Virus record (IMG/VR): IMGVR_UViG_2711768037_000017
Span: 1-19,280 of that record
Strand: one strand, 5' to 3'
DNA: 19,280 nt
From: a virus
Taxonomy: Duplodnaviria; Heunggongvirae; Uroviricota; Caudoviricetes
Made by a program: the position numbers and the translations under genes. The notes under the pieces are model-generated. The model saw only the letters and a list, made by a program, of their open reading frames with translations. It had not been told where the DNA came from and made no database searches. Shown piece after piece: positions 1,953 through 8,619 of the stretch (its first letter is position 1; each line of letters starts with the position of its first letter).

Positions 1953-2531
1953 GTGATATGGACTCTACCGTATGAATGGAGGTTTTATTTAATTTTCCCT
2001 CTATTATCGATTGCCATCGCAAGCAAGAGATATGGTATGTTTGCCATTTCCGCAGTAATGTTACTTGCGGCAAGAGACTTTATGACAGAATTTGTTTTGT
2101 GGCCATATTTTATAGTTGGCGCCTTAGGTGCATATATATTCAATAAATCTTATGTTAACATTGATGATAAATATTGGATATTCTCATTCATTTCTTTCAT
2201 AGCTATTTTTGTTATCTTCTGCTCTTCCGCAGACAGCTATGGACGAATCAGATTTGCATGCATTTCATTACTATTTATAATGGTACTTATAACTAAACCA
2301 AAAATATTTAAAATAAAATCATTAGTTTATTTAGGTGAGGCAAGTTATAGTCTTTATTTGCTGCATTTGCCTATCATGGCTATAGTAATGAGAACAATAA
2401 ATAATTTCTATAACCTATCGAGCATGTCTACTGTGAATTACACAATTTTGATAGCCTTTATTGCATCTCTGTGTAGCGTTATTTCCTGTATCTGTTTTAA
2501 GAATTTTGAGTGGAGATTCATTAAAAAGTAA
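1953..2531 (+). CDS. Membrane O-acyltransferase (Acyl_transf_3), C-terminal portion, in the same frame as the preceding ORF
   Basis: Same reading frame as 1392-1946 (1377 and 1953 are both divisible by 3). Translation carries the downstream family motifs WTLPYEWRFYLIFP (WSLxxE-type) and GEASYSLYLLHLP. ORF track start is GTG 1953. The two ORFs together are the length of a single acyltransferase. Confidence 0.75.
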   Translation: MIWTLPYEWRFYLIFPLLSIAIASKRYGMFAISAVMLLAARDFMTEFVLWPYFIVGALGAYIFNKSYVNIDDKYWIFSFISFIAIFVIFCSSADSYGRIRFACISLLFIMVLITKPKIFKIKSLVYLGEASYSLYLLHLPIMAIVMRTINNFYNLSSMSTVNYTILIAFIASLCSVISCICFKNFEWRFIKK

Positions 2532-2535
2532 CATT

Positions 2536-2553
2536 GCGGGGCGATGGCCCCGC
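2536..2553. terminator. Bidirectional intrinsic terminator between convergent acyltransferase and tailspike genes
   Basis: Perfect GC-rich inverted repeat GCGGGGC-gatg-GCCCCGC at 2536-2553. On the plus strand it is followed by ttgattt; on the minus strand by a U-rich tract a few nt away. It lies between the acyltransferase stop (2529-2531) and the tailspike stop (2564-2566). Confidence 0.6.
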
Positions 2554-2563
2554 TTGATTTCCG

Positions 2564-4762
2564 CTACGCTATATTAAGATTACCATATGTATTGTTTCCA
2601 AGACCATACCATGCCCAGTTTGTTCCTGATGCAGGAGTACCTGCATTGTGAATCATATCGCCTATATTTATCAGCACTTTCCCAGGGTATGTTGTAGTAG
2701 GAGCAGTGTCTATTCCAGCAGACACATCGGCAAAACGCCAACCACAGGAAACCATATCTGCGTTATCTCTAAATTTCTTAATTGAAAACGTGTATCTGTT
2801 TCCTCTATATATCATTCCAGCAAAACTAGGCCAGTCAATAAGTTGATTTACTGGTGAGTTTAAAGTGTTACTAAACTCATTATTTTCAATAACTGGTTCA
2901 TCGATACGCACACCCGAAGTTGATACTAGATATGTAGAATCAAAGTCGTTGTCAGAAATAATTGGAGCATAACCACCAATTTCACAACCTGTATTGCCAT
3001 GAACAAAATATGACTTATTCCCTCGGTATATAGATTTTCTCCATGTGGGCATTGTTACTTTTACGGCATCAGTTCTATCAAACTGGTTGTTTTCAATCAC
3101 AAGTCCATAACAATATGCAGACATCTGAGTTTCAGCATAATCATTTATGGCATAACCACCGCCTTTAAATGTATTTTTTGTTATTTTAATTCCATTGAAT
3201 GATGTTGAGTAGTCATTACTACCATTCCAGATAATTAGAATATGAGATGAAAATGTGCCATCCTCGTTCTGATCCCCAATGCTTATATTGCTATCAATAA
3301 CAACATTCTGCGCTGCAACACCGTTAGATTCACCTCCTATCTCAACGAATATTCCTTGTCCTGTTTTGATGTTATTCGATATAACTGCACCACCAGTCAC
3401 CCCCCAAGGAGTAATCCTAGACTGAATACTTATAGGGCTTATAAAGTGATTTCTTTCTGCAATTAAATATTTTGTTCTTGCTGAGCACGCAAAATCTTCA
3501 CCAAAAGTATGCCATTTTCTGCCTGTTCTGTACGTTTGGCAGTCAATCATCTTAGCAATTCCATTAAGATTTTTAGTGAAAAATGTATAATTTGTTACCA
3601 AATCAGTCCTTACATTGCTAAGAGTTATATCCTCATTTGGTATAGCACCGTCACCATCAGCATCTGCCATTACAAAGATTCTTGCAGCCAATACGTCAAT
3701 ATCATTAATAGATCCACTACTCCCCTCAAGTGCGAAACCAAACCAATTCTCTTGAGGGGTAAACGTGGTATCTGAAGGTCCAGTTGAAAAATTTGTGCAT
3801 GACTGGTTTAACTTTATACCATTAAATTTAAAGTTTTTGCAGTTGAATAAACCAAAGCAAACACGCTCAGCCTCACCATTTCCATCTGTATTTATATTTA
3901 CATCATTATCTGCGTAAACAAATAAATTATTTTTACCATTAATTACAATTGCTGTTTTACGTATAACACCTGCAGAGTCATGATATTGCTGGCTGATTTG
4001 GTAATTAAACTTTATCTCACCGGCGCTAAAACGTATTGCTCTAACACCACCAAATTTTGATATACAAGCGTTAACCGATGCCGTTGAATCATGCACTCCG
4101 TTAATATCATGTCCAGCCCAAACTGTATGTATGCCATCGAGCACACAATTCGAACGGATCCAGCAACCAGAGCCACCACCATCACTCTCACCAGTTCCCG
4201 CAAGGAAAGCAGCGAGCTCAGCATACGAACCATCCCACGGAACTGTGGGGCTAAATATGGTGATACCGTTGTGCTGAGATTTAGGCATGCTGGCATCCCA
4301 GTAAAACTGCCCGCCGCCAAAGTTGGTTCCTGGTACGTATCCAATTACATTTAATGTGTGATTCCCAGCAGGCTCGCTCATTAAGGTATGGATGTCAGGA
4401 ACATTCTCCATTCGCTGGCTAAACTGATCGGGATCATACTTCAGCACATTGGGAAAATAGAACTGCTGCGAACCATACGCATCATATACAGCCATGGAAT
4501 GGCCTTGCACAGTTACGAACTTGGCAATCTGTCCGTTATATACCGGATATCCGGCAGCGTTAATGATTATTGGTTGCGAAACAGGAACGTGAGAGCCGTC
4601 TTCGTTCTCTATATAAACCTGAATCTGGTTTTCTGAATTTACGGGGTCAGCGTCAATTTTACCGATATAAATTTTGCCATTGGCTACGGCTTTAAAAGAA
4701 CGAGCCATAGTGAAGAGTTGCGAAGGCATGCTTACCACAACATTTGCGGTGATATCTGACAT
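2564..4762 (-). CDS. Tailspike protein: P22-family N-terminal head-binding domain plus divergent C-terminal receptor-binding/depolymerase domain (733 aa)
   Basis: N-terminal ~115 aa ([42 protein letters not shown]...VLKYDPDQF) closely matches the head-binding domain of P22, Sf6 and HK620 tailspikes as I recall them. Start chosen at the internal Met (ATG at 4762-4760) with a GGAG Shine-Dalgarno 8 nt upstream. The 16-codon upstream extension in the ORF track is not present in homologues. The remaining ~620 aa is Gly/Asn/Ser-rich, consistent with a beta-helix receptor domain. Confidence 0.9.
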
Positions 4763-4883
4763 TTCATTGCTCCAGACGAATGATATGATGCAACCATGAT
4801 GTGATTGCATACCGAAATGGTACTATTGAGTATTTATCCAGTAGGTTACGATGCCATTCCACCCAACTGGTGAGGCATCAAGG
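4763..4883. promoter_or_regulatory. Divergent intergenic control region between tailspike and mnt (candidate Pmnt and Mnt operator)
   Basis: A 121-bp non-coding gap between two divergently oriented starts. Contains the inverted repeat ATGCAA-N11-TTGCAT (4788-4810) and AT-rich -10-like hexamers. By position it corresponds to the mnt/arc-ant control region of P22 immI. No operator could be identified with confidence. Confidence 0.35.
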
Positions 4884-5144
4884 ATGTACAGCAAATACGA
4901 CGAGGCGCAGTTTCACTTGAGACTTCCGCATGAACTCCACGCGAAAATTAAGCAGCGTGCGAAGATGAATAACAGGTCGCTGAACTCAGAGATAATTGCA
5001 GCGATTGAAGAATCATTGGCTAAACAAAGCTCTGCATCTGTTTACATTGACGATGCAGAGCGTATGGCAGAACAACAATCTGATATGGTTAAGAAAATTG
5101 TCTTTGATACGCTCAAAGAGCTATATAAAAAAGACAGCAGCTAA
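4884..5144 (+). CDS. mnt: Mnt-like ribbon-helix-helix (Arc/MetJ family) repressor (86 aa)
   Basis: C-terminal half DAERMAEQQSDMVKKIVFDTLKELYKK is nearly identical to the P22 Mnt tetramerisation region as I recall it (DAERLADEQSELVKKMVFDTLKDLYKK). The N-terminus has the RHH beta-strand/helix layout (QFHLRLPHELHAKIKQRAKMNNRSLNSEI). Start placed at internal ATG 4884 with a GAGG Shine-Dalgarno 8 nt upstream; the ORF track begins at 4851. Confidence 0.85.
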   Translation: MYSKYDEAQFHLRLPHELHAKIKQRAKMNNRSLNSEIIAAIEESLAKQSSASVYIDDAERMAEQQSDMVKKIVFDTLKELYKKDSS

Positions 5145-5164
5145 CCATCAGTTACGGAGGATTT

Positions 5165-5242
5165 ATGCAAAGAGATATGCTGAATATTGCGTTCTACATA
5201 TTTGGTTTTTGCACGTTCCTGGTGTTTGCGAAGCTATTCTGA
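5165..5242 (+). CDS. Hypothetical 25-aa hydrophobic peptide (MQRDMLNIAFYIFGFCTFLVFAKLF), possible small membrane protein or gene remnant
   Basis: ATG at 5165 is preceded by GGAGG (5156-5160) with 4-nt spacing, 21 nt after the mnt stop. The product is one predicted transmembrane helix. It overlaps the 3' end of the convergent gp16-like gene by 9 nt. Too short for the ORF track; entirely predictive. Confidence 0.2.
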   Translation: MQRDMLNIAFYIFGFCTFLVFAKLF

Positions 5243-7231
5243 CAACGCATCAGACTTGGCACCCTGAGTCAGGGCGTTAATGGCCTTTTGCGCCTGCTGC
5301 ATGGCTTTCTCAAACGCTGTTGATCCGCGTGGTGTGTTTGCCATTCGGAGCATTGCATTTCTGAATGGCTCGCTCTCATAGGCGCGAGTAAGAAGTCCGT
5401 AGCTTACCGCTGCGCCAGTTGTCGCCGGGTTCATTGCCGTCCCATACCCGATAATGAACGGGATGGTTTGCTGCCCTGTTGGTGTTGTTACTGCCGCTTT
5501 TGCAGCCTGCTGCGTGGATTGCAGGTAGTTTTTCAATCCTTTCAGATAAGCAGCGTCCTGCCCCTTAAATGTGATGCCAGTCTGGTTTTGCAGGATGTTA
5601 AGCTGTCGAAGGAACTGATCAGGGGAACCACCTGATTTCTCCATCGCTTTTCCAATGATGCCATTGCGCATTTGCGCCCTGCCAACACGACCAACTGAGT
5701 TATACAGCGTCTTAATTTCCGATTTGTTCTTGCTGAATAGCATGTTGTTGACAACTTCCGGCGTCAGGTCGCCTTTCATGAGAACATTCTTCAGCCTGGT
5801 ATTCTTTAGTTTCGCCGCTTCGTCAGCGTAGACGGCATTGGCCTGCTGATATTTACGGAGAGTATCGTTGCCAAGATTCTGACCAATGGCACCATTGATA
5901 TCGTCAGTCATTGCCTTGTAAACGCGCTGAATGGCAGCATCGGAACGGTTTGGTAACACTGGTCGCTCACCCTTCACGTCCATTCTGAACTGGCTGCGCA
6001 GGTCGCTTAATTGCTTCAAATCCAGAGTTACCGGACCATCAGGGCCAGCATTGCGAACAAGCTCATCACGATATGACTGAAGTTTTGAAATTGTCTCGTT
6101 ATCAGCTACCTTACCAAGCTTCTGCAGGTTAGATATTTCTGTATCAATCTGCTGAATTGCTCGCGCAGGCTGAATGTTTACTCCAGCCATAGCATTCTGA
6201 ACCTGCTCCAGTCGATTACCGGCGGCACGACGAATTCCTGATGTTTTCGCTTTAAGGCTGTCAATAACAACCGCTGGATCATACTCACCGAATTTATCAG
6301 CAAATCTCTGCACCAACTGGCTTCTCGCTTCCTGTTGCGTTGCTCTCATTCCGCTTGTGCCAGCTAGAGGGATATTTTCTGCTGTAGTCTGCGCCATTTT
6401 TCCGACGCGGGAAGTTGGTTGTAACAGGTCTGTGGTGTGCAGAGGAACTCCTTCACGCTCTGCAAATCTGATAGCCTGCTGAGCTTCTGGCGCGATAGCA
6501 CCACGAACGCCACGATAAGCAGCACCTAATCCACGTCCGGCAGCGTTAATAGCACCGCCAGCAAGTACACCAACGCCTAAATCGGTGGCGAGTGCTTCCG
6601 CATCATCTTTCGCACTATTTGCAGCAAGTGATCCAACTGCGTTTTCTGCTAGAAGGCGAGTTGCCCCCTGAGCAATTCGACCAGCAAGTGTTGGTGCCTG
6701 TGTTGCCGCTCTCTCAATGCCAGCAGGAGTGAGGTAAGGCAATGCCTCAGCAAATACCCTGCCCTCTGTAGTTTGTGGAGTCAGCGCGCCTTGCTGAAGG
6801 CCAAAGTCCTGCTCTAATCCCTGAGTTGTTACTCGTGGCGCTGGTTGATATGTCCCATCGCCAATTCCGAGTTTACCGCCAGCCCAAGCCGCCGCGCTTG
6901 TTACAGCATCTGCAACTGATGCAGGTATGTTTGCCACGTTCACGCCCGCCTGCACCAGTCCGCGACCAGTCTCTTTTACTGCTTCACCAAGATCAGACAT
7001 AAATCCACTTTGCTGTGGTTGTTGCTGTGCTACTGGTTGCTGTGTCTCCACTGGCTGCACAGATGGCAATGGATAGGCAGCATAGAAAGCTTGCTTAGCC
7101 TGCTCTGCATTTTCTCCGGCTTGCGGGGCAACGACTTCATTGAAGTATTGCTCCTGAGCCTGCGCTTTTTGTTCTGGTGCTAACGCCTGATACTGTGGAG
7201 AGGCGATAACATCTTTCCATGCTTTAGCCAT
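5234..7231 (-). CDS. Ejection (internal/injection) protein, P22 gp16-like (665 aa)
   Basis: Last gene of the late operon, in the gp16 position by synteny. Large Ala/Gln/Gly-rich protein. Its start overlaps the upstream gene's stop (TAATG at 7229-7233). Confidence 0.7.
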   Translation of the reverse strand: MAKAWKDVIASPQYQALAPEQKAQAQEQYFNEVVAPQAGENAEQAKQAFYAAYPLPSVQPVETQQPVAQQQPQQSGFMSDLGEAVKETGRGLVQAGVNVANIPASVADAVTSAAAWAGGKLGIGDGTYQPAPRVTTQGLEQDFGLQQGALTPQTTEGRVFAEALPYLTPAGIERAATQAPTLAGRIAQGATRLLAENAVGSLAANSAKDDAEALATDLGVGVLAGGAINAAGRGLGAAYRGVRGAIAPEAQQAIRFAEREGVPLHTTDLLQPTSRVGKMAQTTAENIPLAGTSGMRATQQEARSQLVQRFADKFGEYDPAVVIDSLKAKTSGIRRAAGNRLEQVQNAMAGVNIQPARAIQQIDTEISNLQKLGKVADNETISKLQSYRDELVRNAGPDGPVTLDLKQLSDLRSQFRMDVKGERPVLPNRSDAAIQRVYKAMTDDINGAIGQNLGNDTLRKYQQANAVYADEAAKLKNTRLKNVLMKGDLTPEVVNNMLFSKNKSEIKTLYNSVGRVGRAQMRNGIIGKAMEKSGGSPDQFLRQLNILQNQTGITFKGQDAAYLKGLKNYLQSTQQAAKAAVTTPTGQQTIPFIIGYGTAMNPATTGAAVSYGLLTRAYESEPFRNAMLRMANTPRGSTAFEKAMQQAQKAINALTQGAKSDALSE

Positions 7232-8619
7232 TAATCACCCCATAGTGAAGAAAAGTTACTGCTGGCTGCTGGCTGTGATACCTGTGCAGGTTGAGATTGC
7301 TGCCGCTGAGATTTACCAACATTAACGTTATATTGTTGGTTGTAATTGTTGGTGTATTCCTGAATCTCACGAATCGACTGCTGCATAGCCTCCGGGCTTG
7401 AATAGTCAACCTGCGGCATCCCCTGAAAATACATCTTCGCTTCTGCAACGGTGTTAATACCACTGGCACCCATGTCCCTTGCTGCTGCCACCCCCTGATT
7501 CTGCATTCTGCCCTGAATACGTTGTGCTGAGTTATATAACTGGCGCTGCTCTTTTCCTGTTAATCGGCTGCGAACATCAGCACCAATTGCCGGGTTACCT
7601 GCACCGCCTGTCATTCCTGTCATGAAATCGAGAGCAGAAGCGTCTGCATTTGCGATCGCGTCGATATCCTTCTTCATGGCATAGTTTTGTGCTGATGCAG
7701 ACGATGTTGCAGGCGCTGCGATTGAACTGGCAGGAACGCGAACCATATTCCCCTCGTTGTCGATGCCTTCGTAGAACGCATTAGCCCCAGCGCCGTGAAG
7801 TTTCCCGCCTACCGTTACAGTTCTGCCATCTGATAACTGAACTGTACGCTCATCATTACCAGCGGTTCCTCTTGTTGACGCTCTCTGCATTGCCAAATCC
7901 TGCCCGCGTCGCGCAGTAGAAGCAGATAAATCCTGACCGCGCATCGTGATGTTCTGACCTCGTGCTGTTAGCGCCTCTCCGGCCTGATTGCTGCGGATTG
8001 TCTCTGCCAGTCTGCCCCTGTCAATCTCACGACCAGCCATCTTGTCCTGAACATTGAAGTAATCAATCGGACCAAGAGCAGCCATTCCGAGGTGATCAAC
8101 AAACTCACCAAATCCTGAAGGATTCTGCTGATACATCTGAGCAACGTTGTTAGGGTCAACGCCGACGCGCGCCAGTTCCTTGGCGTTGTTTTGCAGCCAT
8201 GATTGCATTGCTTCTGGAGACGAGGCCGCAAGGCGTGCGCCAGCTGCTAAGGTGCCGATAGAATTACGCTGCTCTTCATCAATGAATCCCATGCCTTTAC
8301 GAACGGATTCAATCTGGTCTGGATATTGAGTAGCCAACTGACGCAAAGCACCGCGATCACCAGACGCATAAGCATTAGCGTATGCCTGCTGAAATTCTTT
8401 CTGCCGCTGAGCCTGCTTTTCCTGCTGAAACACCCCCGCAATACCTGAAAGGCCTTGCAAAGCAGTCAGCCCAACATTGTTAGCGCCTGAACGCTCAATA
8501 TCATTGTTCTGCCTGATAAGCTGAAGCGTATTGCCGATGTCATTTACGCTCGGAGCGTTTGAGTTGACGCCACCGATACCAGCCAACAATCCGCCGTTTG
8601 TTCCTTGCCAAGTAGCCAT
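7231..8619 (-). CDS. Ejection protein, P22 gp20-like (462 aa)
   Basis: Position and size match P22 gp20 (about 470 aa). Ala/Gln/Gly-rich, low-complexity composition typical of ejection proteins. Translationally coupled to the gp16-like gene. Confidence 0.75.

Follow-up and report, generated by a model that had tools for sequence, protein, structure and literature searches.

A conserved 25-codon hydrophobic ORF beside the gp16-like gene of P22-like prophages is very probably a protein-coding gene and a candidate superinfection-exclusion determinant

Results

Organization of the mnt-gp16 region

The window analyzed here, a 19,280-nt stretch of viral DNA (IMG/VR record IMGVR_UViG_2711768037_000017), constitutes the right arm of a P22-like (Lederbergvirus) prophage. 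Its gene order comprises an integrase gene, two ORFs, a tailspike gene on the minus strand, an mnt-like gene and a small ORF on the plus strand, a gp16-like gene on the minus strand, a gp20-like gene and the remainder of the late operon. The features relevant to this work are the following:

4756..4784, plus strand: sigma-70-like site CTGACA-17-AATGAT, candidate promoter for the mnt-like gene and the small ORF (consensus scan)
4884..5144, plus strand: mnt-like gene of the Arc/Mnt family, 86 aa, likely upstream cistron of a shared transcript (Pfam Arc 1e-14, Repressor_Mnt 3e-14)
5156-5160, plus strand: Shine-Dalgarno (SD) sequence GGAGG, 4 nt (ATTT) ahead of the start codon (read in the sequence)
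5165..5242, plus strand: small ORF of 25 codons, encoding the hydrophobic, predicted single-helix peptide MQRDMLNIAFYIFGFCTFLVFAKLF (ORF list, conservation, selection, hydropathy)
5234..7231, minus strand: gp16-like DNA ejection protein gene, 665 aa, convergent with the small ORF; its product is the proposed target of the peptide (ORF list)
5417..5455, minus strand: gp16 residues 593-605, IIGYGTAMNPATT, counterpart of BTP1 gp16 codons 583-595 (translation and alignment)

Homologs of the gp16-like protein are annotated as DNA transfer or ejection proteins in Sf6 and in Escherichia coli prophages. The mnt-like gene is an orphan, accompanied by neither arc nor ant, and diverges directly from the start of the tailspike gene; the paper describing the phage L genome likewise asks what Mnt represses without ant. 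Between the tailspike and mnt-like genes lies a 9-nt inverted repeat, ATGCAACCA..TGATTGCAT (4788-4796 and 4802-4810), which could be an operator for the mnt-like protein. The tailspike ORF (2564-4810, 748 aa) begins at an upstream ATG, and the conserved head-binding N-terminus is found from about position 4760, which is the likely location of the true start.

A short hydrophobic ORF with a strong ribosome-binding site

The small ORF opens with an ATG at 5165 and closes with a TGA at 5240-5242, and both the coordinates and the strong GGAGG-attt-ATG signal described in the initial annotation agree exactly with the sequence and the ORF list. As had also been described, it is co-oriented with the mnt-like gene, starting 20 nt after the mnt-like stop codon (5142-5144), and its GGAGG is mostly unpaired in the minimum free energy fold. 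The overlap with the 3' end of the convergent gp16-like gene that had been pointed out is real, but it spans only 9 nt (5234-5242), so that about 88% of the small ORF is intergenic DNA free of gp16-frame constraint, and the accompanying concern that the overlapping frame might account for its sequence is moot. The single hydrophobic helix attributed to the product was borne out by hydropathy analysis. The peptide has a GRAVY of 1.20 and one hydrophobic stretch, with a best 17-residue window, from residue 5, averaging 2.06 on the Kyte-Doolittle scale, and this profile fits that of one predicted membrane-spanning helix.

Taken without conservation, the combination of an SD-ATG motif and a short ORF is at chance level: the window contains one instance of GGAGG-N3-8-ATG against 2.76 expected from shuffled sequences, and short ORFs are common, with 77 of at least 20 aa overlapping window positions 3000-8000. 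It is because of its conservation that the small ORF rises above this background. The region yielded no RNA-structure signal on folding (z = -0.35) and no match in Rfam, and no terminator-like site was found at or just 3' of the small ORF in the window, Sf6 or BTP1. The peptide returned no match in Pfam, NCBIfam or PHROGs at E <= 10, its sequence was not found in a literature search, and it was not present in the available portion of the supplements to an enterobacterial microproteome preprint. Sixteen exact variants of the peptide were likewise absent from a collection of 15 billion proteins.

No terminator-like site was found between the mnt-like gene and the small ORF, and expression of the latter is therefore most simply envisaged from the mnt promoter. 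The number of sigma-70-like sites returned by the consensus scan was at chance level, so the site at 4756..4784 constitutes weak evidence for the location of this promoter. In the lysogen, the small ORF is most likely co-transcribed with the mnt-like gene, as judged from this arrangement.

Conservation and selection in close relatives

In the tblastn comparison with P22-like phages envisaged in the initial annotation, the intact peptide was identified in Sf6, IME10, Gally, 720R6, 683R2 and an O26 phage, in none of which it is annotated, and a diverged intact copy was identified in Salmonella phage VSe13. The segment spanning window positions 5100-5300 was matched in 367 of 5,426 complete E. 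coli genomes, some 300 of which include the small ORF (a rough estimate from the matches listed), and PGAP never called it in the E. coli genomes matched. In most of the E. coli matches listed, homology begins at window position 5164, one base 5' of the ATG. E. coli 81EVA matches positions 5100-5300 with full identity.

Close loci were gathered with a 17-mer fixed mainly by the gp16 C-terminus, providing about 120 sequences with 49 distinct 78-nt ORFs. The ATG and the reading frame are kept in all of them, with no stop codon or indel, but stop-creating changes represent only 2% of the possible substitutions in this frame, so that an intact frame is by itself weak evidence of coding. Analysis of the 49 distinct sequences with the Nei-Gojobori method yielded a pN/pS of 0.29 in the ORF frame, contrasting with values of 0.74-1.59 for three control frames out of five. 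The '-1' shadow antisense frame presented a pN/pS of 0.41, yet it contains stop codons in 48 of the 49 sequences. A per-site test on this clade, with 17 synonymous to 32 non-synonymous changes and an expected synonymous fraction of 0.22, was only modestly significant (P = 0.025).

The small ORF occurs in at least four unrelated upstream contexts, nearly all of them with an SD-like purine run. It follows the mnt stop codon and GGAGG, as in the window; a lipoprotein-like gene and AAAGG; the Sf6-type arrangement, with GAGATGAG, a weak SD and the tailspike start at a distance of about 95 nt; or a further type of sequence with GGAGG. The string GGAGGATTT-ATG, or a one-base variant of it, is found in most mnt-linked loci and also in most loci of the 23-aa clade from other genera described below. 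No consensus sigma-70 promoter was found 5' of the small ORF in Sf6 or BTP1. The small ORF is missing from some otherwise near-identical prophages, which indicates that it is accessory and dispensable. One locus without it, from E. coli CFSAN064035, looks like a rearranged or recombinant P22-like prophage: positions 2495-5061 of that locus contain a truncated copy of gp16, a fragment of the Arc family and a second gene with an SLT domain, arranged in tandem.

Conservation and selection in distant relatives

The search was extended to distant relatives by querying one genome per species with the gp16 C-terminus, followed by a scan of viral contigs that added 58 analyzed loci. Diverged small ORFs were identified at the same place in Escherichia sp., Citrobacter, Pseudescherichia, Candidatus Erwinia dacicola, Atlantibacter and Kluyvera. 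All six are convergent with gp16 and overlap its stop codon, and five of them are preceded by a GGAGG-type SD. Taking all the phages and prophages with the small ORF together, the assigned hosts are Escherichia, Shigella, Salmonella, Citrobacter, Kluyvera, Atlantibacter, Pseudescherichia, Erwinia and Klebsiella. The ORF was present in each of the 65 distant loci examined, 63 of which carry a 23-aa form with consensus MxRDLLNFAFLIFGIxVGxALFA. This form is also present, unannotated, in phages L, ST64T, ST104, g341c, BTP1, MG40 and SPN9CC and in Klebsiella phage phiKp_30. The 25-aa and 23-aa clades are homologous (hhalign 97%, E 5e-11), with the window and BTP1 peptides (25 and 23 aa) sharing about 39% identity.

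For the 23-aa clade, selection was assessed in the same frame on the 42 distinct 60-nt sequences present at its 63 loci, yielding a dN/dS of 0.10 with pS at 0.69. Substitution events were distributed as 20, 9 and 45 over the three codon positions (chi-square 27.6, P about 1e-6), and they include synonymous exchanges such as CGT/CGA/AGA, TTA/CTG/CTT and GGC/GGA/GGT. Most loci of this clade share an upstream module consisting of the near-palindrome TTGCGCA(A/G)CGTTGCG, about 10 nt, the hexamer TATAAT, about 17 nt, and GGAGGATTT-ATG. The conserved TATAAT has a poor -35 element and is regarded here as a putative promoter. The near-palindrome, which is perfect in one locus (L132), lies 25-60 nt upstream of the ATG in loci such as this one and L141-L186. 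It could serve the small gene as operator or promoter, or act as an element in the late transcript of the opposite strand.

Two further observations concern the same variable region. In Yersinia aleksiciae, a different ORF is located just downstream of the gp16 stop codon (about position 3882 of that locus). It is preceded by a GGAGG SD and encodes about 42 aa, VLEIASFVALAAIVYLIRQVG..., among them a hydrophobic helix at the N-terminus, and its presence suggests that unrelated micro-proteins have been recruited more than once to the slot beside the gp16 stop. Uncharacterized genes of the phrog_6067 (161-171 aa) and phrog_6823 (139 aa) families are also found here, at positions 1441-2480 of the Gally and 720R6 loci and 2026-2511 of the VSe13 locus. 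Their N-termini weakly resemble the Cor superinfection-exclusion family (phrog_1119), and they may be further exclusion morons.

What is generally expected of a coding small gene, that is, purifying selection in the ORF frame only, together with a kept start codon and SD, is what was found here. Given selection in the ORF frame and maintenance of the start and SD across genera, the small ORF is very probably a genuine protein-coding gene. The initial annotation had also considered that the ORF might lack conservation in related prophages and drift as dictated by the gp16 frame; the opposite was observed, with the ORF both conserved and under selection, and its suggestion of a small membrane protein is strongly backed by protein-level purifying selection across genera. 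The gene appears in none of the annotations checked, including those of Sf6, L, ST64T and BTP1.

The BTP1 homolog lies within the STnc6030 fragment

In BTP1, the locus corresponding to that of the small ORF is the site of a transcript with a documented phenotype, the most informative link, which the initial annotation had not drawn. STnc6030 of the Salmonella prophage BTP1 is a 786-nt transcript that entered the literature as an antisense RNA (Owen et al. 2020, Microb Genom, PMC7067206). It maps to the minus strand of the chromosome at 403,942-404,727, opposite the tailspike gene's 5' end and the 3' end of gp16 (STMMW_03891) (PMC7067206). In lysogens it reaches TPM values of 28-178, versus 3-16 for gp16. 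It was detected by RNA-seq and by Northern blot, where the main bands were of about 480-500 nt, not 786 nt, and it was classed as non-coding because it holds no ORF of more than 60 aa, a criterion ruling out only ORFs above that length (PMC7067206). A plasmid-borne STnc6030 fragment conferred total immunity to BTP1 and none to P22, its constitutive expression from PLlacO-1 still allowed cells to form lawns, and overexpression left phage production on prophage induction unchanged (PMC7067206). Four escape SNPs were mapped to chromosome positions 404,041-404,078, and all four are non-synonymous changes in gp16 codons 583-595 (PMC7067206).

Mapping of the STnc6030 cloning primers placed the cloned insert at positions 2095-2880 of the BTP1 locus in our set (L221). 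The insert holds a complete 23-aa ORF, MERDLLNFVFLIFGLVVGKLLFA (chromosome 404,321-404,250), together with its SD and the TATAAT, and no other ORF of at least 20 aa on the STnc6030 strand starts with ATG. The ORF is the homolog of the one in the window. Both lie on the strand that is antisense to gp16 and extend across its 3' end, where the stop codon of gp16 is overlapped in the same manner, and both begin with the arrangement GGAGG-N4-ATG. The two loci differ in that the BTP1 transcript begins inside the tailspike gene, whereas in the window an mnt-like gene intervenes between tailspike and ORF, and in that exclusion and expression were measured for the BTP1 fragment, while the E. coli version is known from its sequence. 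The alignment of the BTP1 promoter region with the window is dominated by tailspike coding constraint. An internal transcription start site near BTP1 chromosome position 404,337 was not seen in the portion of the Canals et al. 2019 supplements that was available.

The escape region of BTP1 gp16 (codons 583-595, ILGIGTVTNPALV) has a counterpart in the gp16 of the window. Among the IMG/VR loci, the gp16 segment corresponding to window positions 5417-5476 is almost invariant in the E. coli clade. Rare natural variants change NPATTG to NPTTTG or NPVTTG and GYGTAM to GYGAAM, and these might be natural escape alleles.

The small ORF occupies the position of sieA

The initial annotation had placed the small ORF where P22 carries sieA, and the two do occupy the same slot, between gene 16 and the tailspike gene and on the prophage-expressed strand. 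SieA of P22 (Pfam PF26849) is a protein of the inner membrane which is expressed from the prophage and blocks DNA injection, and the phages it excludes are of various gp16 types, among them the types found in Sf6 and L (Leavitt et al. 2024, mBio, PMC10883804). Escape from SieA requires gp16 substitutions G532W and P546S together with changes in gp20 (PMC10883804). These two gp16 residues align to G576 and V589 of BTP1 gp16 and to G586 and A599 of the window gp16; the P546 site therefore falls inside the STnc6030-escape segment, and the G532 site 7 residues before it. The two studies (Owen 2020; Leavitt 2024) do not cite each other regarding this shared segment.

In other respects the peptide departs from SieA. 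SieA proteins have about 160-200 aa and at least three predicted transmembrane segments, in contrast to the 25 aa and single hydrophobic stretch of the peptide, and the SieA cytoplasmic C-terminal motif FxRYPxEAxxFNK is absent from both the peptide and its read-through frame. A search for RYPxEAxxFNK within 2.5 kb upstream found it in none of about 109 ORF-bearing loci. No significant similarity between the peptide and the SieA profile emerged, with no Pfam hit at E <= 10 and hhalign probabilities of 11.5% and 4%. SieA acts across gp16 types, whereas the STnc6030 fragment discriminates between BTP1 and P22. No accession is shared between the 41 phage records with sieA and the 38 with the small ORF, a pattern consistent with sieA and the small ORF being alternative occupants of one niche, although linkage to different gp16 alleles could also produce it. 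We propose that the peptide is a functional counterpart of SieA and not a relative. The paper on the phage L genome reports no known exclusion genes in L, with only mnt and orf62 between genes 16 and 9.

Proposed function and alternative explanations

Several small membrane proteins encoded by prophages or phages, such as HK97 gp15 and T4 Imm, block DNA entry. They embody the concept considered here, a small inner-membrane moron product made in the lysogen that stops genome entry by related phages, but they are larger, are not known to be related to the peptide in sequence and act on other delivery machinery. We propose that the small ORF serves as an accessory 'moron' gene in those P22-like phages whose ejection proteins are of the Sf6/L/BTP1 type, and that its product is a single-pass membrane peptide that excludes superinfecting phages through gp16, the copy in the window included; we assign this reading a probability of about one half. 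The peptide would have a short, polar N-terminus (MxRD) and, after it, a single hydrophobic helix inserted into the inner membrane. In the lysogen, the window copy would be expressed from one transcript together with the mnt-like gene, and in phages without mnt the upstream module (near-palindrome, TATAAT and GGAGG) would serve the small ORF. The peptide would then interfere with the gp16/gp20 DNA-delivery conduit of incoming phages bearing the cognate gp16 type, much as SieA, an unrelated protein of 160 aa, does in the case of P22. The exclusion attributed to STnc6030 would be carried, wholly or in part, by the peptide encoded within it. The stricter version, in which the 23-25-residue peptide is by itself the effector, STnc6030 is its mRNA and the target is the same gp16 C-terminal segment as for SieA, appears to us about evenly balanced between right and wrong.

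The published model for STnc6030 offers a different account, in which a cis-antisense RNA pairs with the late mRNA over the 3' end of gp16 and the tailspike gene's 5' end, destabilizing it, the ORF being incidental or secondary (at most, part of a dual-function RNA). The transcript was seen by both RNA-seq and Northern blot, the cloned fragment excludes BTP1, the escape SNPs lie within sequence complementary to STnc6030, as pairing requires, and a 2025 review retains the description of STnc6030 as a base-pairing RNA. Any transcript reading through mnt in the window would, moreover, be antisense to the gp16 3' end. An antisense RNA does not predict, however, the kept ATG and SD, a dN/dS of 0.10-0.29 or the variation concentrated at third positions, and the region gives no structural RNA signal. 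A single mismatch in a duplex of several hundred nucleotides should not abolish pairing, yet single SNPs allow escape, and four out of four are missense. Overexpression did not reduce phage yield on induction, and a start at the annotated 5' end would leave the 480-500-nt bands too short to reach the proposed 'seed'. We therefore favor a peptide blocking gp16-dependent entry over RNA pairing, since single missense SNPs escape, induction is unaffected and specificity tracks gp16 type, and we regard the antisense RNA as an unlikely explanation of the phenotype. At clade level, peptide and gp16 segment correspond perfectly, but this is not counted as evidence because physical linkage can explain it.

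The evidence for coding is silent on function, and the peptide could serve the lysogen in some other way, modulating a host transporter or sensor or contributing to fitness with no part in exclusion. Numerous peptides of 20-50 aa in bacteria act by binding membrane proteins and tuning them, which lends this option general plausibility, and variation is greater in the peptide than in the gp16 segment, which hardly changes within the E. coli clade. This role seems to us somewhat less likely still than the antisense RNA: the ORF sits inside a fragment with a demonstrated exclusion phenotype, it sits in the place of sieA, with which it was never found together, and it always abuts and overlaps one gp16 family. 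A type I toxin-like peptide, acting in addiction or abortive infection and held in check by the complementary late transcript or another antisense RNA, would also be small, hydrophobic, borne on a mobile element and overlapped by convergent transcription, and toxins such as Ibs, Ldr, TisB and ShoB resemble the peptide in size, hydrophobicity and antisense overlap. It matches none of the profiles of the Hok, Ldr, Ibs, TisB, ShoB and Zor families, however, and no toxin family was hit in Pfam, NCBIfam or PHROGs. No leader sequesters the SD, which is strong and accessible, and the antisense partner would here be present only in the lytic cycle. Unlike such toxins, the peptide is apparently tolerated when highly expressed, the BTP1 homolog being highly transcribed in healthy lysogens and lawns forming under constitutive expression from PLlacO-1, and a toxin role is accordingly very improbable. 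The same low standing is given to a decaying sieA-type remnant, reduced to the last transmembrane helix, or to a chance ORF in conserved non-coding DNA. A remnant would account for the sieA position and for the best match to SieA by both tblastn (37% over 19 aa) and hhalign (11.5%), which falls on the last SieA helix. Such hhalign values (11.5% and 4%) are typical of unrelated hydrophobic helices, the SieA motif and any Pfam hit are lacking, and purifying selection, a kept SD and, across genera, about 185 loci with the frame intact speak against a remnant. The initial suggestion that the ORF might be what is left of a deleted gene was consequently abandoned, and a sieA remnant was rejected as the present state of the locus on the weak helix-to-helix similarity and a dN/dS of 0.1-0.3, even though the peptide gene may have an ancient origin in sieA.

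Implications

If the proposed role of the peptide in exclusion is correct, an unannotated gene would be added to the heavily studied phages Sf6, L, ST64T and BTP1, and it would encode the smallest superinfection-exclusion protein known. The mechanism of a published phage 'antisense RNA', which reviews still present as a case of RNA-based exclusion, would be overturned. More broadly, length cut-offs in gene calling and in the classification of non-coding RNAs would be hiding functional micro-proteins in defense-relevant prophage regions. For the P22-like phages, the finding would reveal a shared weak point of the DNA-delivery conduit that is exploited by two unrelated prophage proteins, and would provide a minimal, one-helix probe of how gp16 and gp20 build a conduit across the cell envelope.
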